From IMG/VR virus record IMGVR_UViG_3300050343_000137, positions 1 through 56,718 of that record: a stretch of 56,718 nucleotides of DNA, one strand, 5' to 3'. Shown piece by piece: positions 8,379 through 51,106 of the stretch. The position numbers and the translations under genes were made by a program. The stretch is from a virus. Its lineage: Duplodnaviria > Caudoviricetes. Every line of letters begins with the position of its first letter. Position 1 is the first letter of the stretch. The notes beneath the pieces are model-generated. The model had not been told where the DNA came from, searched no databases, and was given only the letters and a program-made list of their open reading frames with translations.

Positions 8379-11300
8379 ATGAATCAAGATTTAAGAGTAA
8401 CTTACGAATTAGTACAAACTAAAGTACAAAACAAAGCAGCTAAACAGACTGAAAAGTCTATGAAGAAGTTAACAACTCAAGCTGCACATACAAACGCTAT
8501 GGTTTCTGGTGCTGCTGGTGCAATGGCTGGTGCTCTTGCCGCAGTAGGTGGAGCAATGTTCTTAACAGTAGGTGCTGCTTCTAAATTTGAAGATTCATTT
8601 GCTGGTATTAGAAAAACTGTAGATGCAACCGAAGCACAATTTAGTACACTAGCACTTCAAGTAAGACAACTAGCGCAAGATATACCAGTTGCTGTAACTC
8701 AGTTAAATCAAATTGGTGAACTTGGTGGTCAGTTAGGTGTAGGAGTTGAAAACCTAGAAGAATTTATTGAAGTTATTGCACAGGTAGGTGTTGCAACAAG
8801 ACTGTCAACAGAATCAGCAGCACTATCATTAGCACGACTTGACCAGATATTTGGATTACAAGGTAAAAGTTTCGATCTAACTTAGCTTCTTCATTAGTTG
8901 ATTTAGGTAACAACTTCGCAGCTCTTGAAGATGAAATACTTTCTACATCATTACGATTAGCAGCAGGTGCTAAAGTAGCTGGGGCAACAGTTGCGGATAC
9001 TTTAGCGATTGCTACTGCACTACAAGCAGTTGGTGTTCAATCACAAGCTGGTGGTACAGCTATGGCTCGTGTATTCCAAGCTATTACTCTTGCAACACAA
9101 GGCGGTAATAAAGAATTAAATACATTTGCCTCAGTAACTGGAATGACAGCTGAATCATTTAAAACATTAGCTACAGACGACCCTGCTAAAGCTTTGAATG
9201 TTTTCCTCATTGCATTAAAAGACGCTGGTGATTCCGGTAGAAATGTTATTGAAATTTTAGAAGAGTTGGGTCTCAAACAACAAAGAACTATTAGAGCATT
9301 GTTAGCAGTTTCTGAGGCAGGAGACTTGTTATCTGACACATTGAATACAGCAAACCTTGCTTACGATTTAAATGTAGCGTTACAAGACGAAGCAAACAAA
9401 AGATTCGAGACTGCTAAATCGCAAATCAAATTAATGAAAAACTCTTTTACTGAGCTTAGAATAGAAATGGGACAATTCTTTTTACCAGCACTTAAAAATA
9501 TAGTTGCAGGAATGACTGGACTATCAGAGTCTTTACAAGATAGCGAAAAAGGAACTGGTGGCATGAGTAAGGGTGTCGTAGCACTAGTAGGTACTTTATC
9601 TACTTTATTTGGTGTTATTGCTTTAACTATTGGTGCTTTTATAAATGTTAAAATGAAAGCTCTAGAGGCTGGTGTAGGCTTGGTGAAATATTCTCAAGGA
9701 TTAAACTTTGTAACTTTAACGAGTATGGGAGCTACAAGAGCTCAAGCAGCACTTGCAGTAGCTATGAAAACTGTGCTGGTAAATATGGGACCTATTTTAA
9801 TAGCTCTTGCTGCTCTTACTACTGCATTCTTAGTAAATCAAGGAGCAAATGTTAAAGCAAGAAGAGCAACCGAAGCATATGGTAAAGGATTAGCATCGTT
9901 AGTTCCTATGCAAGATAAAGCAAGAAAATTAGAAGAACGCTTAAATGTACTAAGAGAAGAAGCTGCTAATTCTCCATTTGGCTCAAGAATGTCTGCTGAA
10001 TATAAACTTGTACTTAAAGAACAACAAGCAGTGTTAGAAGCTATGGAAAAAATAGAAAATCAAACAAACAGAGCATTTTTAAATATTCCAAAATTTAAAG
10101 TTGATTTAGGTTTGGATGAATCTGTAGAGTTAGTTGATATTTTTAATAAAGGACTTAAAGATTCTATCGAAATTAGCGAACTTTTACAGAATATAGACCC
10201 CTTTAAAACATTTAGAGGCGGTGTACTTAATGAAAAAGACATAAATCCTGTTGATAGTTTTGCAGAACAATTTGATATTGATGTAGATACTGCTAAAGCA
10301 ATATTAGAAAGTGATTTTGATACACTTACACAATTTTTAGTTAGTCAACTCTCAGGAAATGAAGACGCTATTAGAGACGGAGGAGAAATTCTAAATACTC
10401 TTGCCGACCAATATTTTGCTACATTATTAAGAGTAAATACAGGTGTATTTCAAACTTCTGATGCGAATAAAGCTGCATTAAGAGCTCAAGAACCAACAAT
10501 GAGAGGATTTGAAGAGGTATCACAAAGACTTCTTAATATAAACGCCGAATCAGATATGATAATTCAAGATAGAAAAAACATGCTTGACGAATATAACTCA
10601 ATGGCTGCGGATACAGAGGGACTCCAACCGATTATGGAAACTACTTTTAATACAAATCCAGAGGCTGCACTAATTGTTTTTAAAGCTGTTAATGGTTTAT
10701 TGGACATACAAGAAAATAAATTAGAAAATATTGTAGATAAAGGCGAAGATATTAAAAAAGCTTTTATAGACGCGTTAGACCCATTACAAGATATAAATCA
10801 ATTATTAAGTGAAGTAGAAAGTCCAGAAATAATAGACATAGACGAACTTATTAAAGGAAGTCAAAAAGTAAAAGATTTAAATACTCTTTTATCTACAGGA
10901 GTTTTTCAAATATTAGAGGCAGGTTTCCCAGCATTAGCAATGGATTTAGCAGACGGAGGTTTAGAAGCACAGAATTTAGGAAAAATTGTAACAATATTAA
11001 ATGCTGGTATAGAAAACAATATACCATTACTTCAAGAAATGAATGATAGTTTAATTGACAGTAATGAAGACTACAACTCTCTACTTGGTGATGGCCAAGT
11101 TTCAATGGCAGAAATTTCTAATGAACTTCATATACAATATGGCATACAGAGAAATAAAACTAGCGAAGAAGAACGCTCTGCTGCTATTAATAGAGTTACA
11201 GCTGATATGCAAAAAACAATAAAATTTGAAGGAGCAAACTATTTAGATATATTAAAAGATATTTTAAATGACGAAAGAGCAGTTGCAGATGCTAAAGAAG

Positions 11301-12784
11301 ACATAGCAGATTTAACACAAGAAATATCTGATATGCAAGCAGATTTAGTTTTTGATAATATAACAATTACTAATGCTGCAAAAGACCAGTTGACTATTGC
11401 AGAGGCAAAAGCAGCAGTAGACGAAGCTATTAGTGAATTTGGAAGAAAAGGTGTAGTTACTAAAAAAGAAAATATAAATCTTTTACAAATGGAATTAAAT
11501 GTAGCAAAGATGCAAGACCAAATAGATAATAAAATGGACAAACGCCGTCAAAAATCTTTAAGAGATAAAAAGAAAGAAATTAAATTTTTAGAGCTTGCTT
11601 TAGAACAGGGTGTTATTGAACAATTAGACTTAGATGCTGCTAGAGAAGACTTAGCAGAAATGCAAACACCAATATCTGGAAAACAATTAGATTTACTTAA
11701 ACTACAAAAAGAAATAGCAGAAGCAGAATTTACCGCAGCTAAAGAAAGAGCAAAAGGTTTATCGCCAGAAATAATAAGTGCTATTGAAAATTACAATAGT
11801 GAGTTAGATGTTACAACAGACAGAGCTGATGAAGTTGCTAAAATGCAAGAAGATGTTAATAGAAAAACAGCAGATTTAAATATTACATTAGCAGAAAATG
11901 CTGTGAAATATGATGACATAGCTAAAAAGTTTCCAGACTTTAAAGATAAAGTATCAGAAATAGCTTCCATGATTGGTATACCAGAGGAAATGTTAAGTAC
12001 AGCTTTAGGTTCTATGGAAGAAAGTGTTACAGCTTTTATTGATTATGTTGATTATGCAGAACAATATAAAGATAAAGTTATGAGTGGTTCATCTGCTGGT
12101 TTTGATACTGGAACTGGCAAAGGAGAAAGGCCAATTGTAGATGACAAATATTTACAAGACCAATCTGATGACGAATTTGCACGAGACAAGTTAGCAGCTG
12201 GTGAGTTACATACATATGAACCAGAAACAAAATATGTTCCACCATCAAAGAAAAATCTTCCTTTTACAGGTTTCGGAATGTATCCTGGTATGAAAACTCA
12301 AAGAGAATTACCAGATGTAAGCCTTAGTAGTAACCCATATTCTGGTTTTGGAATGTATCCGGGTATGACTTCTAACATAGATTTTTCAAAATTTAGTTTA
12401 CCTAAATTTGAGGTAAAACCATTTAATATGCCAGAGTCACCTGTTGATACTGATGGCTATAAAGGCATTACAGGTGGATATGAATTTGACCGTTTTAAAA
12501 ACATGTTTAATAATGCTTATGGTGGAAATGTTCCTGTAGGTAGAAGTTCTGTTGTTGGAGAAATGGGACCGGAAGTTATTATGTCAACACCGGGTGGAAC
12601 ATCTGTTTTTTCAAATAAAACAGGAGGTAGCTATGGAGGTGTTACAGTAGAGAATATGAATGTAAATATTACAGGACTTCCCGCTGACCCAATAAGTGCA
12701 AGAAAAGCTGCTATAAATATTAGAAAAGAACTTACTAAGTTAGAAAACGAAGGTAGTGCAGGAACAGGTTTAAGAAATAGATGA
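8379..12784 (+). CDS. Tape measure protein, TP901-like (indel near 8878 splits the ORF)
   Basis: FEDSFAGIRKTVD, GELGGQLG, LGNNFAA..., C-terminal VGEMGPEV; long helical Ala/Leu-rich body. Confidence 0.93.
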
Positions 12785-12903: not shown

Positions 12904-14165
12904 TGTCTAATGAACATCAAATAACAATAGGTCATCTTAATTTTACCTCACCTAGCTCTTTAAATTTTGCTACAGACCCAACATCAAGAACATTTACTTT
13001 AAGTGGAACAATAGCACACACCAATACTTCTCAATTAGATTTAGCTGAAGTCAAATATATTAGAGATGAACTTTCTTCTATGTCTAATTATGGAATATTT
13101 TATCCTCTAACATACACAGGAGATTCTACACTCAAAGGATACTGTAAGATAAACAGTGCGAGTGTAGACATTACAAGATATGGTGGAGCAGGTATAAAAT
13201 ACAACATTATGGGAAACTGGTTAGGAAATCCAGGTGAGATAAGATTTGAATCACAATTTTCTGGTGCTTTACTAGATAATGACCATAGTGTAACTTCTAC
13301 AACTTCTCAATTTTTTGCTGTACCTTCACAAGCTTTTTCAGTGCATATACCTGCTGTTGGAACTGGTACAACACCGAATGTAGAGCAAAGAATTGCTTCT
13401 TATGGAACAGGAACTACTACGCTTAACTATTTTAGTAGTAGCAACATAAGAGCTGATAATGTAGAATTTGAGTGTAATCCCATAGATTATCTAAAGGGTG
13501 CGGTAAAGATTTCTACTAATGGAAAAGTAAGAAATGGCTTACTAAGTCCTAATGACAATGTTGACCAAACAGTTATAGAAAATGGATTAGTCAAGATGGA
13601 GTTAACCGAAAGTAATACTCAATCAAGATTTACAATTTATGTTTGGGAAAATGATGACTGGAGAAGTGCTAAACAATTTGCGGTATCAAAGGGTACATCT
13701 AAAACAGAGTGGGATGGTTGGAATACAGTAAATATTATTAAAAATTATGCTGAGTGCGGTACAGTAAGATTTACTTCGCAAGCAAATACTGATGGTAGTG
13801 GAAGACTGACATTCGATGTTTCTTTAAGAAGAGGGTCAAGGTACTTTAGCTTGATTATTAATTCTTATGGAAATGCAGACGAAATAAGAATACAGAGAAC
13901 AGCAACAGAAGCATCTAGCTCTGGTACTGGATATATAGTTTCATCAACAAATGACTCAGAAGGTAACTTCTTTATTCTTGGTTCGCCGAACACCTTTAGT
14001 TCAGATTTGACCGAGGGTGGGATTTACCTTACTGCTACACAAATGAAAGCATTTGTTGGGTACTGTTTAGATGGTACATCAGCTGCTGGAGAAAATACTC
14101 CAGACAATATGCGAGATTCTTATTTTGATTATTTGTATGAGCATGTAAGGTCAATCAAGTCATGA
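12903..14165 (+). CDS. Distal/minor tail protein
   Basis: Beta-rich ORF directly after tape measure; start at 12903 preferred because of the TAATG overlap. Confidence 0.75.
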   Translation: MSNEHQITIGHLNFTSPSSLNFATDPTSRTFTLSGTIAHTNTSQLDLAEVKYIRDELSSMSNYGIFYPLTYTGDSTLKGYCKINSASVDITRYGGAGIKYNIMGNWLGNPGEIRFESQFSGALLDNDHSVTSTTSQFFAVPSQAFSVHIPAVGTGTTPNVEQRIASYGTGTTTLNYFSSSNIRADNVEFECNPIDYLKGAVKISTNGKVRNGLLSPNDNVDQTVIENGLVKMELTESNTQSRFTIYVWENDDWRSAKQFAVSKGTSKTEWDGWNTVNIIKNYAECGTVRFTSQANTDGSGRLTFDVSLRRGSRYFSLIINSYGNADEIRIQRTATEASSSGTGYIVSSTNDSEGNFFILGSPNTFSSDLTEGGIYLTATQMKAFVGYCLDGTSAAGENTPDNMRDSYFDYLYEHVRSIKS

Positions 14166-17158
14166 GCGTAAACGAAAAATTAATGACTCCAGGTACATTT
14201 AATGTACTACTTAATCTTGAAACAACTCCTAACTCAGTAGTCAACTCTATAGAGCCTTGGGGTAATATTGTTCTAACTCCTACAAGAATAAACCCAGAAG
14301 AATTTACAGACACGCAAATAAGAAACATGTCTAGGTATGTAGGTATTGTTACTTCACAAGAAATATCTGAAGAAGGTATAGATGTGTCTGGTAAAGGTGT
14401 TCTTGCTTATCTTGGAGATACAGATTCTCGTGGTATGGTCCTTGCTAGAAATGCAGGTGTCGGTGCAGTAAGAAGTTATGTTGACGACACACTAGATGAT
14501 GTTGTTGATAGAAGTACATCAACTCCTTATGGATTACTTAGAGATGAGGATGCACTACAAAGAGCTGTAAGAAAAGGTACTGTTACAGAGGTAACTTACG
14601 ATGATACAGTTTTACTTTTAAATTTTGAAGGAACTAACGGAGATACAACTACTACTGATGGTTCTGCATTTACTCAAAATCAAGTAATCAGTTTTATAGG
14701 AACTTCTGATATATCTACCGACCAAGCTAAGTTTGGAAGCACAAGTCTTAATTTAACTACAGATGGCGTAGTAACAATTGCTGACCGACCAGAGTTTGAC
14801 TTAACATTTAGAGATTTTACAATCGAATGGTGGGAATACAGAAACTCTGGAGGAACTAATCCTACTGTTGCTGCTAGAAATAATGATACATACTCCCCTT
14901 GGATTGCAGGAAAATTATCTGGTGGTAATAATACATTTTTAGCAACACATGATGGAGATGGTTATAACGAAACAGAAGACTTAAACATAAGTATGGGTTC
15001 TATAGATTTAAATCAATGGAATCATTTTACTGTAACAAGACAAGGACAAACATTTAGAACTTTTAAAAATGGTACAAAAATTACAGAGGTAAACAGACCA
15101 GACTTATATATAAGAGTTAATTCAGACGCAATGCAAATAGGTAAAGCACAAGGTGGCAATTTCTTTAATGGATACATAGATGCCTTTAGAATTGTAAAAG
15201 GTACAGCTCTTTATACAGCAGACTTTACACCAGATACATCTGCTCCTGTAGCAACAACAGCAGCTAAAAAATATACTGGTAAACATTATATGGAATCAGC
15301 TTATAAAGCTTTTAAAGATGTAGCTGTAGCAATTGGAGCAGAGTTCAAAATGAATAATAATGGAACAATTGATGTAGGACCTCCAGAAGCTTTATTTACA
15401 GGACACGAGAATAATACTCCACAAGGAATGATTGTAAGAGATATGTCCGGTGCAGACCCTTCTATACAGGGTTATTCCGGTATTGATTTAAGTACAGAGT
15501 TTAATGCAGAAGATTATGTAAGCCGTGTAGAACTAATAGCTTCTAACTACGGTCTAGAAATAAACTTAGGTCAAGCAGATGCCAAAAGTGTACCTTACAA
15601 AGATTTGTTTGGAAATGAACTAGAAAGAATACAGATATTATCTGAAAATGATGTACCAGATTCTTTGCGAGATATCAGAGCAGAGGCATACTTAAATGAA
15701 TACAACAAAATACAAAAAACTTTAAATGTTGGGTTAGAAGATTATGATGTTTCTGGCGATATAGGTGTTGGAGACATTATATTTGTTTGGGACCCGGATG
15801 TTGGATTTGAAGATACAGCAACAGATGCCACATTAGAAAATAGAGATAGACACGAGATAACTTATCAAGGTCAAATATTACATCCTATAAAAATTAGAGT
15901 TATGGGTCTTTCTTTTCCTATTACAGAATCTATGGGTGTTTTTTATAGAGATGGTAATGGAAGCTATACTGACTTAACAGATTATATTGAATTTGAAGTT
16001 GGAGTAACACAGATAGAAGTAGGTTCTACAACTAAAAACATTAATGAAGATTTAAGAGGTTCTGCTTCTATTATTTCTGTAGGTGGAACTAACGAGTTTA
16101 CTGTACCAGATGCTCCAACAGGATTTTCAGCAGCTACAGGAACATATCAAGACGGCACAGGAAGACCCTTTGCCTTTGCTAAATTAAACTGGGTAGAGCC
16201 AACAAACACAGATGGTTCAAGAATTACTGATGGTAATATGTATCGAGTTAGGTACAGACAGGTAACTGATAGCGATGGTAATAATTTAATTGACCAAAAT
16301 GATAATCAAGTTATTGACTACGAATATCTGACTATAGAATTTGGAACTACTGCTGCCGTTATAAAAGGTTTAGGTTCACAAAATACATACGAGTTTGGAG
16401 TTGCAGCAATAGATAACTCTGGATTTTCTGGAGGCTTCTCAGTTCTTACAGCTGTCGCTATGCCTTCTGATGCTACAATACCACCAGAGCCTTTACCTCC
16501 TACAGGTACTTTTGGAACAGTTGCAGCTAACCCCACTCGTGTGCAGATACAACATAACTTAGGTGCTGCTAAAGATGCAAATGGTAACTCAATTAGTTCT
16601 CCAGTTAACTTTTCTTTACCTGTTGATATAGACCATTTAAATGTTTATAGAGGTACAACTTCTAATTTCACAATTAGTTCAAGCAACTTAGTAGGACAGA
16701 TAGAAGCTAAATCAGCTCATGTTACTTTGGGAATACCTGCTATCGGAGATTTTCCCTCTACAACAGAAGGTGTTGCATACTATAAAGTTACAGCAGTTGA
16801 TGTTGCTGGAAATGAATCAACAGCTTCTACAGCTGGACAAGTAACAGAAGAATTAGTTAATACGGCATTTATTTCAAATGCAGCTATTACAGAAGCAAAG
16901 ATTGAAGACTTAGCAGTTACTAGTGCAAAGATAAATAGTTTGGAAGCTGGAAAAATAACAGCAGGAACTATTAGTGGTAAAGAAATTATTATAGATACAG
17001 ATACTACAGATTCTTCAAACCCTGTATTGGGAACAATAAGAAGTAATAACTATGTATCTGGAACTGCTGGTTGGGTTATAAAGTCAGACGGTACAGTAGA
17101 GTTCGAGGGCGGAGAGTTCCGTGGTACACTTAGAGCTGGAGAGATACATCTAGGATAA
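14162..17158 (+). CDS. Tail tip/hub protein with LamG-like and FN3 domains
   Basis: DFTIEWW, NQWNHFTVTR, FNGYIDAFRIVKG (LamG); VPDAPT, YEFGVAAID, YYKVTAVDVAGNES (FN3); AITEAKI..LAVTSAKI. Confidence 0.85.
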   Translation: MSVNEKLMTPGTFNVLLNLETTPNSVVNSIEPWGNIVLTPTRINPEEFTDTQIRNMSRYVGIVTSQEISEEGIDVSGKGVLAYLGDTDSRGMVLARNAGVGAVRSYVDDTLDDVVDRSTSTPYGLLRDEDALQRAVRKGTVTEVTYDDTVLLLNFEGTNGDTTTTDGSAFTQNQVISFIGTSDISTDQAKFGSTSLNLTTDGVVTIADRPEFDLTFRDFTIEWWEYRNSGGTNPTVAARNNDTYSPWIAGKLSGGNNTFLATHDGDGYNETEDLNISMGSIDLNQWNHFTVTRQGQTFRTFKNGTKITEVNRPDLYIRVNSDAMQIGKAQGGNFFNGYIDAFRIVKGTALYTADFTPDTSAPVATTAAKKYTGKHYMESAYKAFKDVAVAIGAEFKMNNNGTIDVGPPEALFTGHENNTPQGMIVRDMSGADPSIQGYSGIDLSTEFNAEDYVSRVELIASNYGLEINLGQADAKSVPYKDLFGNELERIQILSENDVPDSLRDIRAEAYLNEYNKIQKTLNVGLEDYDVSGDIGVGDIIFVWDPDVGFEDTATDATLENRDRHEITYQGQILHPIKIRVMGLSFPITESMGVFYRDGNGSYTDLTDYIEFEVGVTQIEVGSTTKNINEDLRGSASIISVGGTNEFTVPDAPTGFSAATGTYQDGTGRPFAFAKLNWVEPTNTDGSRITDGNMYRVRYRQVTDSDGNNLIDQNDNQVIDYEYLTIEFGTTAAVIKGLGSQNTYEFGVAAIDNSGFSGGFSVLTAVAMPSDATIPPEPLPPTGTFGTVAANPTRVQIQHNLGAAKDANGNSISSPVNFSLPVDIDHLNVYRGTTSNFTISSSNLVGQIEAKSAHVTLGIPAIGDFPSTTEGVAYYKVTAVDVAGNESTASTAGQVTEELVNTAFISNAAITEAKIEDLAVTSAKINSLEAGKITAGTISGKEIIIDTDTTDSSNPVLGTIRSNNYVSGTAGWVIKSDGTVEFEGGEFRGTLRAGEIHLG

Positions 17159-31980: not shown

Positions 31981-32385
31981 ATGGCTCATTACGCCTTTCT
32001 TAACGACAACAATATAGTAACTGAAGTTATTGTAGGTAAAGACGAGTCTGATACCGATACACTTCCAGAAGGCTTTGATAGCTGGGAAGCTTGGTATGCA
32101 GATTTTCGTGGACAAACTTGCAAAAGAACTTCTTACAACACTGTTGGCAATTCTCATACCTTAGATGGAACACCGTTCCGTGGTAATTATGCAGGAATCG
32201 GTTTCACTTATGATGAAGACGAAGATGCATTTTATCCAGCGAAACCATATGCTAGTTGGACACTTAGTGACGACTATGTATGGGAAGCTCCAAATGCTTA
32301 TCCAGATGATGGAGAAGCTTATATTTGGAACGAGAATGCTTATAACGGTGACAATTCTGAAGGTTGGGAATTAGTCAATGAGTAG
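31981..32385 (+). CDS. Partner protein of the Gly-rich fibres (MAHYA-type)
   Basis: MAHYAFLNDNNIVTEVIVG, RTSYN, FRGNYAGIG.TYD...DAFYP; AGGAG RBS. Confidence 0.75.
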   Translation: MAHYAFLNDNNIVTEVIVGKDESDTDTLPEGFDSWEAWYADFRGQTCKRTSYNTVGNSHTLDGTPFRGNYAGIGFTYDEDEDAFYPAKPYASWTLSDDYVWEAPNAYPDDGEAYIWNENAYNGDNSEGWELVNE

Positions 32386-33756: not shown

Positions 33757-34671
33757 ATGGGTAGAAGAAGATTCGGTCATATAGGTACCAAAGTAAAAGA
33801 TATTTCGCAAACTAACGCAAACAACTCTGGTATTTTTGATATTAATGAAGTAGCAATATTAGTAGCAGAAGATAAATGGAGAAAGTTCAACACACAAGAT
33901 ATAGAGTATCTAGTTATATCTGGTGGTGGAGGTTCTTGGAATGGAGGAGGAGCTGGTGGTTATTTTAAAACCAACACAGTATCTTTAACCTCTGGAGACA
34001 CATTTACAGTTACAGTTGGAAATGGTGGAGCTTCTCATTCAAACGGCGGAACATCCAAAATAGAAGATTCTAGTAGCAATGTCGTTGATAGCGGTAATGC
34101 AACTATGGCAGGTGGTGTTCGTGGTGGTTCTCCGGGTGGTGGAGGATTAAGCGGTAATGTAGGTTCTGGAGGTGGCTCTGGACAAGGTGGTGGTACAGGT
34201 TCTTTAGGTGGTAATGGTGGCTCTGGTACAAACTCTTATACAGCAGGTGGTGGAGCTGGTGGTGCTGTAGGTAACGGCAGTAATGGTGGAGGAGCTTGGA
34301 ATACTGGCGGTAATGGTGGTGGCGGAACAGGTGCATTTTCAACTTGGGCTTCTGGAGCTGGTGTAGGTGGTTCTGGTGGTAATTTTTGTGGTGGAGGTGC
34401 TGGAGGTTCTACTTCTGGTAATCATTCTAATGGAGGCTCTGGTGGTGGAGGTATGGGTAGACCCGATAACTCTGGTCACAACGGAGGAACAAACACAGGT
34501 GGTGGCGGTGGTGGAGAAGTTAATCTTGGGAACCAAGGAGGTTCTGGAATGGTATATGTTAGAATACCAAGTGATAAAACATTATCTGCTACAACTGGAA
34601 GCCCAACAGTAGGAACTGATTCCAACTATAGATATTATGGTTGGACTGGAAGTGGGAGTTTTACAGTATAA
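33757..34671 (+). CDS. Glycine-rich virion protein (different N-terminus)
   Basis: SGIFDINE, IEYLVISGGG, GGSGMVYVR, GSPT, YRYYGWTGSGSFTV. Confidence 0.8.
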   Translation: MGRRRFGHIGTKVKDISQTNANNSGIFDINEVAILVAEDKWRKFNTQDIEYLVISGGGGSWNGGGAGGYFKTNTVSLTSGDTFTVTVGNGGASHSNGGTSKIEDSSSNVVDSGNATMAGGVRGGSPGGGGLSGNVGSGGGSGQGGGTGSLGGNGGSGTNSYTAGGGAGGAVGNGSNGGGAWNTGGNGGGGTGAFSTWASGAGVGGSGGNFCGGGAGGSTSGNHSNGGSGGGGMGRPDNSGHNGGTNTGGGGGGEVNLGNQGGSGMVYVRIPSDKTLSATTGSPTVGTDSNYRYYGWTGSGSFTV

Positions 34672-35045
34672 TGGCACATTTTGCAGAATTAAATGAAGAA
34701 AATGTTGTTCTTAGAGTAACCGTCATTCATAACAATGAAATGTTAGATGAGGATGGTAATGAACAAGAATCAAATGGTGTTGAGTTTTTACAATCTTTGT
34801 ATGGAGAAGATACTATTTGGAAAAAATGCTCTTATAACACTTATGGTAACAAGTATTGGGTAATGGAAATGCAAGAAGATAATTTTGAAAAGAAAGTAGA
34901 AGGCGACCAATCTAAAGTTTTTAGAGGTAACTATCCAGCAGAAGATTATATTTACGATTCAGAAAATGATGTATTTGTAGCACCAGAACCCGATGAAGAT
35001 TATACATTAAACGAAACTACTTGGTTGTGGGAACAAGATGAATAA
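34671..35045 (+). CDS. Partner protein (MAHFAEL-type)
   Basis: MAHFAELNEENVVLRV, WKKCSYNT, FRGNYP; paralog of 31981. Confidence 0.75.
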   Translation: MAHFAELNEENVVLRVTVIHNNEMLDEDGNEQESNGVEFLQSLYGEDTIWKKCSYNTYGNKYWVMEMQEDNFEKKVEGDQSKVFRGNYPAEDYIYDSENDVFVAPEPDEDYTLNETTWLWEQDE

Positions 35046-35164: not shown

Positions 35165-36664
35165 ATGGCGAATAGACCAATTCATGTTGTGGAATCTGGC
35201 GGAGACTCTACAGGATTAAAAGAATTTGCAGATGGTGCTGACTCTGGTGTTCAATTACCTACTGGTACTACTGCACAAAGAGACTCATCAGCTTCAGCTG
35301 GTGAAATAAGATTTAATACTGAAAATAAAAAAATAGAATATTATGATGGTGCCAATTGGCAATCAAGTTCTTTTATAAATGTAGACGATGCTGAGTATGA
35401 TGGAGCTTTTACAGTTGAAGGTACAGATTATTCTAATCAAACTGCTGGAGAAAGCAGTGGTGCTCAAAGACCGGGTAACAACGGTACTTGGTTAGACTTT
35501 AGTACAACTTCTCAAATTGGTAGCAGTGCTACTTGGTCATTTCAAAATCTAGTCGGTAATGTTAATTACTCTAAATTTTTACCAGCTGGTCACGACAGAG
35601 CACACGCTGGACTTACAGGAGATGAAGCAAGATTTGGACCTGCTGGTTCTAATACAACTGAAGCAGAAATAACTTCTAGGTATACACCTATTATGGAAAT
35701 AGCAACAAATGCTGAACAAACTGCAATGGGTAACTCTTACAAAAACAAACAAAAAGCAGGAGCTCTTGCTTTTACTACTAGAACAAATGATTATATTTAT
35801 TCTGGTTTTTCACAAAAATTTGGTGGTAATAAAGCATTTGTTAGTGGTGTTACTAACTATATGTTTGGTAACTCTATGGGTTATTATCAAAATACACAAG
35901 GCGTAAATAACTTACTAACATTCTGGAACTCTAACGATAGAGGTGGTCCGATACCTTGGCTTTCTGTTGGTAGAGCATATTATGATGTTAGAGAAAATCA
36001 AATATCTTTCTTTACTGGTGGTACTTTCCAAAAAAGCAACCCCGGTATGAAAGTATCTATTCCACAAACTAGACCTATCGATGGACCTCTAAAAGTAAGT
36101 TCAAAATTTCTGTTAGACTTTCATCCTTCTGGTCATACAATTACGGACAACAACAAAGCTGGTCAAATAGGCTATTTAGATGATGGTTCATCTAACGCAA
36201 TTGTTTATTTTGCAGGAGCTCACGCAAATTCAAGAATTTTACCAATAGATGTACAATCTATCGATAATAAAGAGTTACAGAGAATATTATTCTATGATTT
36301 TAGTAACCAAGAGAACAAAATAAGAGATTACAAGGTTGTATTTTACAATAGCAATAACAGCGGTAATAAAACTCTTGTTATTAATCCAACTAACCTTAAA
36401 GTTGTAGGTGCTTCTGCTAACTTTACTGTTGAAACAAATAGCAGTTCATTAGCAGGTAAGCACGAATCTGTTAAAACATATGCAGAAGCTGCTGCTTTAA
36501 CAACTACATCAACGCAATTTTTTGACTCTACTTTTCCATCAGCTGGTTCACAAACCTCATATACAGTTACATCAAAAGGTATAGTAACAATGAATGTCAT
36601 TCGACACGGTAGTGGTTCACAAATGCACGTTCTTTTTGAAAATCTAAACACACAAGGATTATAA
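35165..36664 (+). CDS. Putative receptor-binding fibre protein
   Basis: RPIHV..GLKEF, LPTGTTAQR, GEIRFNTE...EYYDG N-module followed by a unique beta-rich body. Confidence 0.7.
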   Translation: MANRPIHVVESGGDSTGLKEFADGADSGVQLPTGTTAQRDSSASAGEIRFNTENKKIEYYDGANWQSSSFINVDDAEYDGAFTVEGTDYSNQTAGESSGAQRPGNNGTWLDFSTTSQIGSSATWSFQNLVGNVNYSKFLPAGHDRAHAGLTGDEARFGPAGSNTTEAEITSRYTPIMEIATNAEQTAMGNSYKNKQKAGALAFTTRTNDYIYSGFSQKFGGNKAFVSGVTNYMFGNSMGYYQNTQGVNNLLTFWNSNDRGGPIPWLSVGRAYYDVRENQISFFTGGTFQKSNPGMKVSIPQTRPIDGPLKVSSKFLLDFHPSGHTITDNNKAGQIGYLDDGSSNAIVYFAGAHANSRILPIDVQSIDNKELQRILFYDFSNQENKIRDYKVVFYNSNNSGNKTLVINPTNLKVVGASANFTVETNSSSLAGKHESVKTYAEAAALTTTSTQFFDSTFPSAGSQTSYTVTSKGIVTMNVIRHGSGSQMHVLFENLNTQGL

Positions 36665-36665
36665 A

Positions 36666-36827
36666 ATGAATATTGACGGGTTTATAGACAGAGAGGGATG
36701 GACCAAATGGGAAGACAATTTTGACTTTCTTGGTGAAACTCTTGAAGATATAGCTAATGCATTAGTTGAATGTAATCATTCAGAATTAGTTGCAAAAGCT
36801 CAATATGTGCTTGATAACGTAGTATAA
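36666..36827 (+). CDS. 53-aa hypothetical protein
   Basis: MNIDGFIDREGWTKWEDNF... fills the gap between two genes. Confidence 0.5.
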   Translation: MNIDGFIDREGWTKWEDNFDFLGETLEDIANALVECNHSELVAKAQYVLDNVV

Positions 36828-36848
36828 TTAAAATAAATTCTGGGAGGA

Positions 36849-37670
36849 ATGGTGGACAAAAATATATTTCATTTAGTGGGTATGCCACGTGCTGGTAACA
36901 CAGTATTAGGTGGTATTATCAATCAAAATCCAGACTTACAAGTTAGTCCTTTAAGTCCTTTAAGTAGAACTGTAAGTACTTTACATCAATCTTTTGAAGG
37001 AGAAGCTTGGGAAAACTTTGACTGGTCTGCTGAACAAGATACCTTAGCAAGAAAAGTTGCACAAGCTTGGTATTCAGAATCTAAAGCAAATAATATTATA
37101 GACAGAGGTAATTGGTTTCCAGAAGTAGTTAAAAGATTATCTGATAATCCAAAAGTAATTATTTTACAAAGAGATGTGTTTGAAGTATTTGCTAGTTTTA
37201 TAAAATGGGCAAATGAAAATATAGAAAACTTTATATATACAAATGTAATGTCAAGAAAACCAGAAGATGTTATGTCTTATTTGTCTGAATACGGTAATGT
37301 ACAAACATCAGCAAGAATGATTTATACATATCAAAAATATTTAGAAGAAAATGATGATATTGATGTTATGTATTTAGACTATGAAGATTTAACTGGTGAT
37401 ACAGAAAATTCTATAAACAAACTGTACGAATTTTTAGAAGTGGAAACGTTTGAACACAATTATCAAAATATAGGTCAATTTACATTTGAAGGTGAAAAAT
37501 ATAACGATTCAAGAGTAGGTGCAAATTTACACAAACTTAAAGAAGGTAAAATACAAACTTCTTCACACGATATTGAATGGTTATTTCCAAGAGAACTATA
37601 TGCTAGATGGGTAAATATGAATGAACTTATATATACCCCAGAACAATTAGAGGAGAAATATAACAAATGA
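36849..37670 (+). CDS. Sulfotransferase family protein
   Basis: 5'-PSB loop GMPRAGNTVL..I.NQNP, 3'-PB KVIILQRD..EV.AS, YEDL. Confidence 0.88.
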   Translation: MVDKNIFHLVGMPRAGNTVLGGIINQNPDLQVSPLSPLSRTVSTLHQSFEGEAWENFDWSAEQDTLARKVAQAWYSESKANNIIDRGNWFPEVVKRLSDNPKVIILQRDVFEVFASFIKWANENIENFIYTNVMSRKPEDVMSYLSEYGNVQTSARMIYTYQKYLEENDDIDVMYLDYEDLTGDTENSINKLYEFLEVETFEHNYQNIGQFTFEGEKYNDSRVGANLHKLKEGKIQTSSHDIEWLFPRELYARWVNMNELIYTPEQLEEKYNK

Positions 37671-38101
37671 ATATATTAATTTACGGTCTACCTACAAGTG
37701 GTAAAACTACTTTTGCAGAGAAGTTAGTAGAAAAAGTTGGTACTAACATAATAAGACATATTAATGCTGACAAAGTTAGAGAAGCATTTGGTGATTGGGA
37801 GTTTACTCCACAAGCTAGACAAAGACAAGCTTTAAGAATGTCTGCTCTTGCAAAAATAAATGATGTCGATGGATTTAGTTCAATTGTAGATTTTGTATGT
37901 CCATTTAATGCTTATAGAGAGATGCCTTTATGGGATATGACTATATGGGTAAATACTATATGTGAATCCCCATATGAAGATACAAATAAAGCTTTTGAAG
38001 AACCAAAAAAAGAACCTACTTATACAATTTTTAATTGGGAAGAAGTAGATGATATTGTTGAAGAAGTAGCTTACAAGTTACTCAACCAAGAGGAAGAATA
38101 A
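37667..38101 (+). CDS. cysC: Adenylylsulfate (APS) kinase-like protein
   Basis: GLPTSGKTT P-loop, NADKVR...DWEFT..AR.RQ, VDFVCP, FEEP. Confidence 0.82.
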   Translation: MNILIYGLPTSGKTTFAEKLVEKVGTNIIRHINADKVREAFGDWEFTPQARQRQALRMSALAKINDVDGFSSIVDFVCPFNAYREMPLWDMTIWVNTICESPYEDTNKAFEEPKKEPTYTIFNWEEVDDIVEEVAYKLLNQEEE

Positions 38102-38499
38102 TGTTTGACCCTAAAAAACCTACAGTACAAATGCTTGGTAGATGGCAACCATTTCACGATGGTCACTTAGCTCTATTTAAAGAAGCTTTAAAGAAGACAG
38201 GTCAAGTATGTATTATGGTCAGAGACACTGGTGGCACTGACGATAGTAATCCATTTGACTTTGATTTCGTAAAAGAAAAGATTGAAGAAGCACTTATTCC
38301 AGAGTATGAAGGTAAGTTTGTAGTACAGCTAGTACCTAACATTACCAACATAAGTTATGGTCGTGGTGTAGGTTATGCAATAGAAGAGATTGTACTACCA
38401 GATGAAATACAAAAGATATCAGCCACAGGTATTCGTGCTAAAATGAAAGAGATAGGTAAAGATATTCTCGCTTCGCACGAAAATATAATAGAGCCTTAA
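38101..38499 (+). CDS. HIGH-motif nucleotidyltransferase (cytidylyltransferase-like)
   Basis: LGRWQPFHDGH, NPF, YGRGVGY, ISATGIR. Confidence 0.85.
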   Translation: MFDPKKPTVQMLGRWQPFHDGHLALFKEALKKTGQVCIMVRDTGGTDDSNPFDFDFVKEKIEEALIPEYEGKFVVQLVPNITNISYGRGVGYAIEEIVLPDEIQKISATGIRAKMKEIGKDILASHENIIEP

Positions 38500-38524: not shown

Positions 38525-38563
38525 GAAAGCGGGACTTCACCACAGTCTCGCTTTCGCATTTTT
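38525..38563 (+). terminator. Terminator-like hairpin after the sulfation trio
   Basis: GAAAGCGGGACT...AGTCTCGCTTTC followed by gcaTTTTT. Confidence 0.7.
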
Positions 38564-38598
38564 GTCTTAAAAAAACTATTTTGCGAAAACTCTAAAAA

Positions 38599-38906: not shown

Positions 38907-39167
38907 ATGTCTAAAAATATAGACTTTTACTCTGCTGTGCAAGAACTTCAAGATGAACGCAAGAGACGCAATTTAAAACTAGATGTTGAAATAGATAAAC
39001 TTAAGTCTCAAGGATTTGACCAGACAGTTACTACACTGGTTCAAGCCTTAGGAGACCCTTCTATAACCAACAATGTCATTTCAACACATTTGAAGACAAT
39101 AGAAGTAATTGTTTCTGAAAGCGCAATTCGTAGATGGAGAATAGACAATGGCATCCTCAGAGGATAA
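38907..39167 (+). CDS. Small protein with possible C-terminal HTH
   Basis: NNVISTHL...VSESAIRRWR; precedes the phosphoesterase. Confidence 0.6.
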   Translation: MSKNIDFYSAVQELQDERKRRNLKLDVEIDKLKSQGFDQTVTTLVQALGDPSITNNVISTHLKTIEVIVSESAIRRWRIDNGILRG

Positions 39168-40398
39168 AGATAAAGCAAATAAATTTAGAGATGCTCTAAA
39201 TTTTAAAAAAGCAGAACAAGCAGTACCAGATGAAGTTAAAAAACTAGGTTCCTTTAAAGAAGTAGACAAAGCTACAGGTTTAACTAAATTTTCTGATTTT
39301 ATTGAATCTGAAGATGTAGTTGAAAACTTTGATGATATACTTAGACATTTCAATAGAGACCCTAAAAAATATTATGTTGTAGGGAGCAGTGTAAAGTTTA
39401 GACAATGGACAGCAGCAGATGGTTCTACTGCTAATCATATTATGTGCGATATAGCATCTAAAGACCCTAATGTTAATGATGAGATATTAAAATCTTCGAA
39501 AGATGCATTAAAGAACTGGAAACCAGTACGTTTCAATGCAAAAGCCAAGGGCGATTCAAGCTTCGTAGTAATCTTAAGTGACTGGCAACTCGGTAAAAAC
39601 GAGAGAGGTGGTACTGAACAGTTAATAAAAAGAATAGAGATTGGTCTTGCTGAAACAATTTGGAGATTTAAAAATCTTTCAAAATTTACTAATTTTGATG
39701 AAATTATAGTGGCATCCTTAGGTGATATCGTCGAAGGGTGTGATGGATTCTACGCACAGCAAACTTATTCTGTCGAATATTCAGACGCTCATCAGCTACA
39801 GCTTGCTGTAACTTTGATGCAAACGGTATTGTTAGAACTAACTAAGTTGGGATTGCCAATAACATTTATCGCAGTTCCCGGGAATCATGGTGAGAATCGA
39901 AAAAATGGTAAAAGCTATACAGACTTTATGGACAATAAAGACATAGCTTTAGCTTGGTATGTTGAAAATGCTTTTAGATTTGATAAAAAAATATATAAAC
40001 AATTTAAATTTATATACCCTAACAATCTTGATGATGACATTACATTAACTTATAGCACACATGGGAATCTCTTAGGATTTGCCCATGGACACCAATTTCG
40101 TTCGGGCGGAGGGTCTTTAGCTCTGGGTAAAGCACAAGCTTGGCAAAAAAATCAAAAATATGGTGATTGGGAAGTAGGATTTGCAAACATATTGAACTAT
40201 GGTCACTTTCATCACTTTTCAGTATTAGAAGACCCACAACTTATCATTGGGGCACCAGCGCTAGACGGTGGCTCAAAATGGATTGAACAAACTCATGGAA
40301 AAAGAACTCATGCTGGTATCTTGTCTTATACAGTAGATAAAGGTGGCGCTAATAATATATATATTGCTAAGAAAAAATCACACAAAGACTTTGGCTAA
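39148..40398 (+). CDS. Calcineurin-like metallophosphoesterase (Mre11/SbcD-like)
   Basis: SDWQLG, GDIVEG, GNHG, AHGH and GHFH motifs. Confidence 0.88.
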   Translation: MASSEDKDKANKFRDALNFKKAEQAVPDEVKKLGSFKEVDKATGLTKFSDFIESEDVVENFDDILRHFNRDPKKYYVVGSSVKFRQWTAADGSTANHIMCDIASKDPNVNDEILKSSKDALKNWKPVRFNAKAKGDSSFVVILSDWQLGKNERGGTEQLIKRIEIGLAETIWRFKNLSKFTNFDEIIVASLGDIVEGCDGFYAQQTYSVEYSDAHQLQLAVTLMQTVLLELTKLGLPITFIAVPGNHGENRKNGKSYTDFMDNKDIALAWYVENAFRFDKKIYKQFKFIYPNNLDDDITLTYSTHGNLLGFAHGHQFRSGGGSLALGKAQAWQKNQKYGDWEVGFANILNYGHFHHFSVLEDPQLIIGAPALDGGSKWIEQTHGKRTHAGILSYTVDKGGANNIYIAKKKSHKDFG

Positions 40399-50182: not shown

Positions 50183-51076
50183 TTAATTAATACTTTGCTT
50201 CGGTGGTCTAACAGATTGCTGAGCAAAGTATTCTTTTCTTCTAACTACTGGGAAGCCATCCCATTCACCTTTTTCCCAAACTCTTAAGTATGTAGATGTT
50301 GGGTAATCTATTCCAGCTTTTTTAACTATGGTGTGCATAATATCAAAAGACATTTTACCCAATGCTTGTATGTCTTGATGCGTATGAACCCTTGTCCCCA
50401 TACAAGTTTGTGCAAATCTTCTATGTCCAAGAGAAGCACCATTGTGTATGTCAATCAAATGTGATACTTCAACACCATAACCAGTAGGATATTCTAAAGC
50501 TTCTAATACCTCTCTTCTCCCTGCATACTCACCAGATAAAGGCTGATAAAACTCTTGTATCTTAGGATAGAACATTGCCAACATAGGACGAGCAACAAGT
50601 TCTGTAACTCTACCCATATTACCTCGGTCATAATATGCTTTTACATAATCAACTTCTGGGTTCATAATTAGTGGTCCAACAAGTCCACGAACAAATCTGT
50701 CATCAAAATTTTTAATGTCTCCATCAAGGTAAACTACAATATCTGAGTTAGTTACAAATAATCCTTTCCAAAGATTTTCTCCTTTACCTCCTATAACCTT
50801 TCCTAAGTCTGGTCTAATGTCTTCGGCTAAATAAAAATCTACACCCATAGACGAAACAATTTCTTGTGTGTCATCTGTTGAGCCACTGTCTACTACTACA
50901 AGCTCATCAACCCATTCGGGTATAGCTTTTAAGATTTTAGAAATGTTTTCACCCTCGTTTAAAGTTGGTATAATGACAGCTATAGAGTTATTTTTTTTGT
51001 GACTTAGAATGTATCTTTCGCTAAAGAAACTTTCGTCATATGTGAATGGTTGATACCAAGTGTCAATTCTTTCCAT
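50183..51076 (-). CDS. gpgS: Glucosyl-3-phosphoglycerate synthase-like glycosyltransferase (GT-A fold)
   Basis: VIIPTLNE, VVDSGSTD, GKGENLW, YLDGD, GRVTELVARP, QPLSGEYAGRRE, GYGVE, RVHTHQ. Confidence 0.85.
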   Translation of the reverse strand: MERIDTWYQPFTYDESFFSERYILSHKKNNSIAVIIPTLNEGENISKILKAIPEWVDELVVVDSGSTDDTQEIVSSMGVDFYLAEDIRPDLGKVIGGKGENLWKGLFVTNSDIVVYLDGDIKNFDDRFVRGLVGPLIMNPEVDYVKAYYDRGNMGRVTELVARPMLAMFYPKIQEFYQPLSGEYAGRREVLEALEYPTGYGVEVSHLIDIHNGASLGHRRFAQTCMGTRVHTHQDIQALGKMSFDIMHTIVKKAGIDYPTSTYLRVWEKGEWDGFPVVRRKEYFAQQSVRPPKQSIN

Positions 51077-51106
51077 AAGAAATAATAACACAATTAAATA
51101 GTTCTA

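Follow-up and report, generated by a model that had tools for sequence, protein, structure and literature searches.

The 56,718-nucleotide stretch of DNA analyzed here (IMG/VR virus record IMGVR_UViG_3300050343_000137, positions 1 to 56,718; hereafter the window) carries a three-gene cassette encoding a sulfotransferase (ST), a shortened adenylyl-sulfate (APS) kinase (KIN), and a minimal adenylyltransferase with a HIGH-type motif (NT). Comparative genomics and structure models suggest that NT is probably a non-orthologous ATP sulfurylase, in which case the cassette would constitute a self-contained sulfation module leading from sulfate to APS, to 3'-phosphoadenylyl sulfate (PAPS), and finally to a sulfated product. 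Sulfurylase activity is inferred for NT from its fusions, operon position, co-distribution, and complementarity with sat, combined with a permissive fold. On balance, and with somewhat less assurance, we also favor the broader proposal that sulfate adenylyltransferases comprise, besides Sat and CysDN, a third class of independent evolutionary origin, namely the NT family. This class would have arisen from a nicotinamide mononucleotide (NMN) adenylyltransferase (NMNAT) by loss of its middle segment, would represent the 'missing sat' of SAR11 and SAR86 and close their reportedly incomplete APS pathway, and would have been captured together with the kinase by several lineages of marine phages, which could then produce PAPS in hosts unable to activate sulfate and thereby sulfate a surface or virion component. 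The kinase-NT pair itself is common to marine phages and marine bacteria. PAPS synthesis coupled to a sulfotransferase is a known kind of system, while NT would be a new enzyme family; a literature search, with supplements and subscription journals outside its scope, returned no description of the family as a sulfurylase.

The first two genes can be assigned by family. ST exceeds the curated cut-offs of two Pfam families, Sulfotransfer_1 (PF00685; 3.3e-12, 46.8 bits, cut-off 22) and Sulfotransfer_3 (PF13469; 4.4e-11, 43.9 bits, cut-off 27), and matches phrog_27463 at 2.4e-35, so that it is by family a PAPS-dependent sulfotransferase of predicted activity, as the first-pass annotation of this DNA had proposed. 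Its translation contains G11-M-P-R-A-G-N-T18 and K102-V-I-I-L-Q-R108-D-V-F-E-V-F-A-S116, in which G11 to T18 and R108 to S116 fit what we take to be the definitions of the 5'-phosphosulfate-binding (5'-PSB) and 3'-phosphate-binding (3'-PB) PAPS motifs, and its matches to solved sulfotransferases are all remote (7v1o_A, E 5e-4). KIN passes the Pfam cut-off for APS_kinase (PF01583; 1.4e-6, 28.8 bits, cut-off 21.1), with residues 3-86 aligned to positions 5-91 of the 152 in the model, and lies under the NCBIfam equivalog cut-offs (TIGR00455, 26 versus 138.7 bits; NF004041, 37 versus 127). Its AlphaFold2 (AF2) model has a pLDDT of 94.9, and all of the PDB matches listed by Foldseek hold an APS kinase, either as a separate protein or as part of a bifunctional sulfurylase-kinase chain (TMq 0.71-0.82; best match 2ofw_A, E 1.3e-7, TMq 0.79). 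Ten residues are invariant across 29 relatives (G7, G12, K13, D35, R38, F46, R51, F76, P79, and R84); they line up with the LDGDxxR, GF, DR, and ISP positions of the canonical APS kinases in three fusion proteins (P0227, P0264, and P0193) and are presumably P-loop and APS-site residues. The lid is shortened, with a 'GRFEDTNKxFxxP' type in place of the canonical 'RDxKGLYxKxRxGEIxxFTGIxDxYExP'. By family and fold KIN is a shortened APS kinase, in agreement with the first-pass assignment, and its activity is predicted on these grounds. A predicted KIN-NT complex scored 0.00 in two runs without controls, which says nothing on binding either way.

The same genes recur together in other phages. Relatives of NT were found on 376 stretches in IMG/VR, and the counts for phage loci refer to the best 80 of these, scored for each partner where there was enough upstream DNA (at least 450 nt for KIN, n=75; at least 1300 nt for ST, n=64). 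KIN adjoins or is fused to NT in 73 of the 80 loci and in 70 of the 75, and a window-type ST is present in 48 of the 64, mostly in the order ST-KIN-NT. The 80 loci form 14 NT clusters at 85% identity or more, of which 8 contain ST and 13 contain KIN, and because the ST-KIN-NT order is seen again in many diverged phage contigs, the arrangement in the window is far from chance. Co-occurrence elsewhere had been named beforehand as the test that could overturn the proposed cassette, and at these frequencies the proposal stands. Two of the loci without a window-type ST (L059 and L083) have a Sulfotransfer_2 gene just upstream of KIN-NT, and NT is thereby found in phages beside sulfotransferases of two Pfam families. 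Fusions, which had been suggested as a further check, tie NT to APS kinases still more closely: APS_kinase was found in 16 of the 28 long NT relatives scanned (50%-identity cluster representatives), and NT is joined to full-length canonical APS kinases in both domain orders (P0193, NT then kinase, 211.9 bits; P0227, kinase then NT, 163.2 bits; and P0264, 193.2 bits). A KIN+NT fusion also makes up phrog_10255, found among Xylella, Xanthomonas, and Stenotrophomonas phages of the Sanovirus type, and 23 isolated-phage records match NT. The ST type is rare among isolated phages (9 of 50,697 records), and a nucleotide search with the cassette against isolated phages gave no match.

Bacterial genomes connect NT to APS by a second route. 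The bacterial scan, with one genome per species, gave 369 NT relatives, and counts for bacterial loci refer to the best 80 of these, which come mostly from Pelagibacteraceae (70-76% identity), with SAR86 and further Alpha- and Gammaproteobacteria next. In 69 of the 80, NT has KIN as an adjacent gene or fusion partner, and in a Sphingomicrobium metagenome-assembled genome (MAG), a TPR-Sulfotransfer_3 gene is the divergent neighbor of a KIN-NT fusion. Among 151 Pelagibacterales (SAR11) genomes, NT was found in 122, aprA in 124, and Sat in 7, the first two counts including one unpublished genome (G087) positive for both. According to the tabulated lists, NT and aprA occur together in 118 of the 151, NT only in 4, aprA only in 6, and neither in 23; these counts are phylogenetically uncorrected, so that the co-distribution may reflect a single clade-level loss. 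NT is thus linked to APS without reliance on sulfotransferases, as it tracks aprA in SAR11. By coordinates, NT lies less than 2 kb from aprA in 23 SAR11 genomes, and the family scan found NT, aprM, aprB, and aprA on one strand without KIN beside NT at one SAR11 locus (L176) and KIN-NT tail-to-tail with aprM-aprB-aprA at another (L175). The usual form of this operon in sulfur-oxidizing bacteria is sat-aprMBA. In a sample of 301 Alphaproteobacteria, 13 have aprA, of which 11 have Sat without NT, 1 (a SAR11 genome) has NT without Sat, and 1 has neither; sat lies within ~5 kb of aprA in at least 6 of the 11 that have Sat. NT and sat are thus mutually exclusive among the aprA-bearing Alphaproteobacteria, a distribution typical of non-orthologous displacement, here of sat by NT. 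The sections available from PMC5069961 report SAR11 without cysDNCHIJ and sat, with cysC, cysQ, and aprA listed in its Table 3, and those from PMC3448164 place sat in a single SAR11 strain, HTCC9565. Excerpts of two preprints describe aprAB in SAR11 as under strong purifying selection and its sulfate pathways as incomplete (bioRxiv 10.1101/2024.12.23.630198) and its hypervariable surface-polysaccharide region as typically containing sulfotransferases (bioRxiv 10.64898/2026.04.03.716430). Separately, a conserved 116-aa open reading frame (ORF) without an NCBIfam match lies directly 3' of aprA at both SAR11 loci (L175:7022-7369, minus strand; L176:9200-9547, plus strand), and contig 2 of the SAR11 genome G001 encodes a 364-aa protein (L170:5959-7050, minus strand) in a sugar-nucleotide gene cluster, in which a complete canonical APS kinase domain (117.9 bits) precedes ~215 residues without a Pfam match.

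Several NT-bearing genomes have a gap in their sulfate-activation pathway that NT could fill. The complete SAR86 chromosome G002 encodes KIN-NT and two strong sulfotransferases (160.8 and 148.6 bits), and it gave no match to Sat, PF01507 (PAPS_reduct, CysD/CysH), the CysD model, or aprA, with KIN as its sole APS-kinase-like gene. Since G002 and two further genomes (G004 and G005) have KIN-NT and sulfotransferases and no match to aprA, Sat, or CysD, these three have no candidate source of APS apart from NT. Among 20 other NT-bearing genomes, Sat was found in 1 and CysD in 2; many of these are MAGs, in which absence is weak evidence, and this tempers the case for NT as the missing activity. Five alphaproteobacterial MAGs of 3.8-5.4 Mb with KIN-NT fusions (G004, G160, G161, G166, and G168) gave no match to the PAPS_reduct (CysD/CysH) model, which found matches in 14 of 14 control genomes. 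As an observation in its own right, all five have sulfite/nitrite reductase-type genes.

By descent, NT comes from a different part of the nucleotidyltransferase superfamily. Its motif, GRWQPFHDGH at residues 13-22, had been described in the first-pass annotation as NMNAT-like, while the protein was thought to be possibly a minimal ATP sulfurylase. The former description agrees with both profile and fold, as archaeal/NadM-type NMNATs are the nearest matches. In Pfam, NT is barely above the cut-off for CTP_transf_like (1e-4, 22.9 bits, cut-off 21); a family profile built from 45 relatives matches the MJ0541 NMNAT (1f9a) at 7.7e-13; and the best NCBIfam match is NF003786 (E 2.6e-7), and there is a weak match to the phosphopantetheine adenylyltransferase (PPAT) model NF001985 (0.0023). 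NT is far under the NCBIfam cut-offs for NMNATs themselves (NF003786, 30.2 versus 397 bits; NF002243, 25.1 versus 127; TIGR01527, 21.2 versus 181.2). In VIA-align comparisons, the AF2 model of NT (pLDDT 89.6) is closest to NMNAT, NadM, and PPAT structures with Z of ~10 (1f9a, Z 10.6, root-mean-square deviation 3.3, 116 aligned residues; 4nah, a PPAT, Z 10.2). The catalytic domain of Sat comes fifth (1v47_B, Z 8.8, root-mean-square deviation 3.8), with the longest alignment among the top ten rows (122 residues), and other sulfurylases (1r6x, 2gks, 1x6v, 1j70, and 4maf) follow at Z 6.3-6.7. In the proposed comparison with Sat and NadM, NT shares the Sat catalytic fold, but NadM/NMNAT structures are nearer and NT is not a member of PF01747. 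This fold is common to the whole nucleotidyltransferase superfamily, and the model would permit sulfurylase activity without demonstrating it.

The profile alignment covers MJ0541 residues 5-75 and 110-140 and leaves 76-109 unmatched, with ~9 NT residues opposite ~34 in MJ0541, and NT is ~35-50 residues shorter than NMNATs, so that much of the NMNAT middle part is missing from NT. In MJ0541 we take this middle segment to be the NMN-binding part. Judged from the sequence comparisons and the model, NT is by descent a trimmed archaeal/NadM-type NMNAT and not a Sat. Within the motif, H19-D-G-H22 forms an HxxH pair where H22 never varies and at least 90% of the 45 relatives keep H19. R14, R41, N50-P51, and N80 are invariant as well, and an invariant G87-R88 loop may resemble the GRD loop that, together with a QxRN motif, serves in sulfate binding by sulfurylases. 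In human PAPSS1, H425 and H428 of an HNGH motif are essential according to the portion of PMC11697783 consulted. The NT family is large, with 7,941 cluster representatives at 90% identity (E <= 0.001) and 1,391 at 50% identity, and most of its relatives are ~115 aa long.

Taken in order, the mechanism would begin with NT transferring AMP from ATP to sulfate to yield APS and pyrophosphate (PPi), after which KIN would phosphorylate the 3'-OH of APS to give PAPS, and ST would take the sulfo group of PAPS and attach it to an acceptor, our best guess for which is a glycan of the surface or virion. The translational coupling or fusion of KIN and NT would pull the unfavorable sulfurylase equilibrium forward, as in bifunctional PAPS synthases. 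In SAR11, NT would probably run in reverse, from APS and PPi to ATP and sulfate, downstream of AprBA and in place of the missing sat. The gene neighbors of other phage lineages hint at a hydroxylated or glycan substrate for ST. In the largest lineage, two or three 2-oxoglutarate (2OG)-Fe(II) oxygenase genes lie 3' of the cassette (L045:5406-6780, L078:4915-5589, and relatives), and three neighbor clusters of this lineage are present in 35-46 of the 80 phage loci, making hydroxylation followed by O-sulfation of one common substrate a possible sequence there. Other lineages have glycosyltransferases, epimerases, or an HldE-like gene near the cassette. None of the oxygenase, glycosyltransferase, epimerase, or HldE-like genes stands beside the cassette in the window, and the fibers, glycans, and host surface named as targets in the first-pass annotation are at most candidate acceptors. 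In a separate locus, a sodium:solute symporter family gene (7.2e-12), possibly a transporter of an anion or other substrate, lies immediately 5' of KIN-NT (L079:3095-4525, plus strand).

A number of results weigh against reading NT as a sulfurylase. The first-pass suggestion of a minimal ATP sulfurylase is supported by comparative genomics, yet NT is not of the Sat type, as it scores just 13.9 bits against the ATP-sulfurylase family PF01747 (E 0.036, cut-off 24.3), a PDB search with its family profile brings up no ATP sulfurylase chain at E <= 10, and its nearest relatives are NMN adenylyltransferases and PPAT. Alignment of the NT family with one genomic Sat by hhalign covers the HIGH motif alone (paired with PHKGH; E 0.023, probability 2%); it places R14 of NT opposite the Arg of TRN, an Arg that is also found in NMNATs. 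Mapping of sulfate-binding residues onto NT from this alignment was abandoned as too weak, and no sulfate-binding residues were identified in NT. The genomic associations also have exceptions. KIN is absent from 5 of the 75 phage loci, and a window-type ST is missing from 16 of the 64, where the ST-cluster profile finds none at E <= 1; at three such loci (L016, L017, and L060), ORFs of 269-300 aa gave no Pfam match at E <= 1e-3. No window-type ST lies within 8 kb of NT in any of the 80 bacterial loci. Sanovirus-type isolates and Stenotrophomonas phage DLP_6 carry KIN fused to NT, and the annotations nearby include no sulfotransferase; the neighbors of the fusion are NADAR-domain, MazG, and DNA methyltransferase genes. 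Finally, AprBA alone could make APS from sulfite in aprA-bearing hosts, so that NT would not be strictly needed for PAPS in these.

Three other explanations can be set against an ATP sulfurylase. The one that survives best, which we regard as unlikely, is that NT forms a different adenylate, acting on phosphopantetheine (PPAT/CoaD-like), a sugar phosphate (HldE/TagD-like), or another metabolite, and that KIN phosphorylates the 3'-OH of this adenylate in the manner of dephospho-CoA kinase, so that the product would be a cofactor other than PAPS. PPAT followed by dephospho-CoA kinase is formally the same pair of steps, and the PPAT chains among the best fold matches of NT (4nah), the weak NF001985 match, and the name 'phosphopantetheine adenylyltransferase' given to the relative P0090 in one database source all fit this idea, as do the NDP-sugar pyrophosphorylase-like genes beside the KIN relative of phiRSL1 and the abundance of sugar-modifying genes in several phage loci. 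Canonical CoaD and CoaE, however, are already above cut-off in all five NT-bearing genomes tested, both family and fold mark KIN and the canonical kinases of the fusion proteins as APS kinases, and the partners to which NT is tied, two sulfotransferase families and APS reductase, belong specifically to sulfur metabolism.

Slightly less probable, in our view, is that NT acts on APS or PAPS but does not provide the APS-forming step of the phage. APS would then come from the host, through AprBA, Sat, or CysDN, and NT would serve in disposal or editing (APS and PPi to ATP and sulfate) or in regulation of the kinase. The position of NT by aprMBA in SAR11 does imply the APS-consuming direction, the SAR11 genomes with both aprA and NT (118 of 151) could obtain APS without NT, and at L176 NT sits in the apr operon without an adjacent KIN. 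The reversible reaction is nevertheless the same, and this explanation differs in direction and not in the identity of the enzyme; NT is the sole candidate APS source in G002, G004, and G005, and a phage gene that destroyed APS would counter the kinase and sulfotransferase adjacent to it.

The least likely of the three, and in our judgment a quite improbable one, is NadR-like NAD salvage, in which KIN would phosphorylate nicotinamide riboside and NT would be a genuine NMN adenylyltransferase, together rebuilding NAD+ during infection (for example, against NAD-depleting defenses) with ST as an unrelated neighbor using host PAPS: NT does match NadM/archaeal NMNATs best (NF003786 and 1f9a, as given above), NadR, which likewise joins an NMNAT to a P-loop kinase, is among the fold matches of NT (8x7f, Z 8.6; 6gye, Z 8.3), and the gene 5' of the fusion in Sanovirus phage Bhz60 has a NADAR domain, but KIN matches APS kinase and not nicotinamide riboside kinase in Pfam and in all listed Foldseek matches, NT relatives are fused to full-length canonical APS kinases, NT is without much of the NMNAT middle part, NadD is already above cut-off in three of the five NT-bearing genomes tested, and the presence of NT in aprMBA operons and its tracking of aprA would be left unexplained.

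With NT as a sulfurylase, the closest known counterpart of the cassette is the bifunctional PAPS synthase (human PAPSS1 and the Aquifex and fungal Sat-CysC fusions), which carries out the same proposed two steps from sulfate through APS to PAPS. Both combine a kinase of the APS kinase fold with a HIGH/Rossmann-like nucleotidyltransferase with a two-histidine motif, and in both the fusions occur in either order. They differ in that NT is not a PF01747 Sat domain, has ~115-132 residues, and is by sequence of NMNAT-type descent, and in that the lid of KIN is shortened and KIN and NT of the window are separate, translationally coupled genes. Archaeal/NadM NMNATs (MJ0541, 1f9a; Francisella NadM, 2qjt) resemble NT in the motif (GRWQPFHDGH in NT, GRFQPFHKGH in these), in the fold core, and in a C-terminal ISxTxIR-like motif, whereas NT is shorter and its genomic partners are APS kinase, sulfotransferases, and APS reductase rather than NAD genes. 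The sat-aprMBA loci of sulfite oxidation are paralleled by the SAR11 locus L176, where NT lies 5' of aprM-aprB-aprA on the same strand; the difference is that in SAR11, NT, which is unrelated in sequence, stands in place of Sat, often with KIN attached. Finally, the sulfotransferases of marine phages (Synechococcus phages S-SRM01, S-SKS1, and S-SCSM1; OM43 phages) are homologous to ST of the window at 23-26% identity. Their neighbors in S-SRM01 and S-SKS1 are glycosyltransferase, epimerase, or hypothetical genes, and no Synechococcus phage is among the 23 phage records matching NT, whereas KIN and NT are supplied by the phage itself in the window and in its relatives. The function of phage sulfotransferases 'remains unclear' in the wording of a passage in PMC10580990.

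If the assignment of NT is true, it would give a textbook reaction a new enzyme family, and at ~115 aa its members would be a useful minimal model and tool. It would also fill a gap in the sulfur metabolism of SAR11, in which NT is near-core and which, according to the available parts of PMC5069961, PMC3448164, and bioRxiv 10.1101/2024.12.23.630198, has kept aprAB, cysC, and cysQ and lacks sat. Phage sulfotransferases would gain a mechanistic frame, in which the whole route of donor synthesis travels with the transferase.

The layout of the cassette in the window (Table 1) is that of a tightly coupled unit, and the overlaps and positions described in the first-pass annotation are present as claimed, with all three genes on the plus strand. 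Read from the sequence, the ATG of KIN (37667-37669) lies on the TGA of ST (37668-37670) in an ATGA overlap, and the ATG of NT (38101-38103) lies on the TAA of KIN (38099-38101) in a TAATG overlap. Purine-rich stretches resembling ribosome-binding sites precede KIN (GAGGAG at 37650-37655) and NT (AGAGGAAG at ~38089-38096). GGGAGG at 36842-36847 is just 1 nt 5' of the ATG of ST, so that the true start may be the GTG one codon downstream; relatives are 272 aa long. The terminator said to close the cassette is borne out by a hairpin with a 12-pair stem, 6 of them GC pairs, and a 7-nt loop, followed by GCATTTTTGT. The terminator scan gave 2 terminator-like sites in the region versus 0.6 +/- 0.8 in shuffles, and the segment 38497-38580 has a fold energy of -25.5 kcal/mol (z = -6.66), equaled by 0 of 200 shuffles. 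The cassette had also been placed right after the last fiber gene; a 499-aa fiber-type gene is indeed upstream, with an N-terminus that matches phrog_30742 (tail fiber, 1.9e-5) and phrog_1325 (1.2e-11), but a 53-aa ORF intervenes, for which no PHROG match was found at E <= 0.01 and the sole Pfam match is at chance level (Pectinesterase, E 0.12).

Table 1. Features of the cassette region, in window coordinates
Feature	Coordinates	Strand	Description	Basis or remark
Last fiber gene	35165-36664		499-aa ORF	Fiber-type N-terminus, PHROG matches
ORF between last fiber gene and ST	36666..36827	+	53 aa	
ST, sulfotransferase	36849..37670	+	273 aa; start possibly GTG at 36852	Pfam and PHROG
KIN, shortened APS (adenylyl-sulfate) kinase	37667..38101	+	144 aa; ATGA-coupled to ST	Pfam and fold
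NT, minimal HIGH-motif adenylyltransferase	38101..38499	+	132 aa; TAATG-coupled to KIN	Proposed non-orthologous ATP sulfurylase
Intrinsic terminator	38525..38565	+	Hairpin 38525-38555 plus T tract	End of cassette

The window represents half of a tailed-phage genome (CheckV, 49% complete), with a long structural module and many glycine-rich fiber paralogues. In this low-GC (~35%) phage, KIN and NT are closest to Pelagibacteraceae genes (70-76% identity), while the exonuclease and a minor tail protein (39148-40398 and 14162-17158) find their nearest counterparts in Streptomyces, Mycobacterium, and Propionibacterium phages. An identification as a plain pelagiphage was dropped, with backbone genes that are actinobacteriophage-like and KIN and NT that are SAR11-like. 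From these similarities, the cassette looks horizontally acquired.

Some further observations concern database records and other parts of the window. In three NT relatives (P0126, P0127, and P0134), an N-terminus of NT ~70% identical to that of the window is joined to fragments of chorismate synthase, dehydroquinate synthase, or ubiquitin hydrolase, and the exact protein of the window (P0001) is recorded on a 140 Mb contig; mis-assembly, or the inclusion of phage or bacterial DNA in eukaryote assemblies, is the probable cause. The tape measure gene of the window is apparently split into ORFs at 8379-8885 (168 aa) and 9062-12784 (1240 aa) with a 176-nt gap, matching phrog_13339 at positions 34-186 and 249-474, which a frameshift, an intervening element, or an assembly error could explain. 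Two paralogues of phrog_7759 (31981-32385, 1.8e-39; 34641-35045, 1.3e-26) each lie directly 3' of a glycine-rich fiber gene and may be fiber assembly or chaperone genes. A GtrB-like glycosyltransferase gene (50183-51091, minus strand; phrog_841, 2.2e-9) is a second gene of the surface-modification type in this phage.

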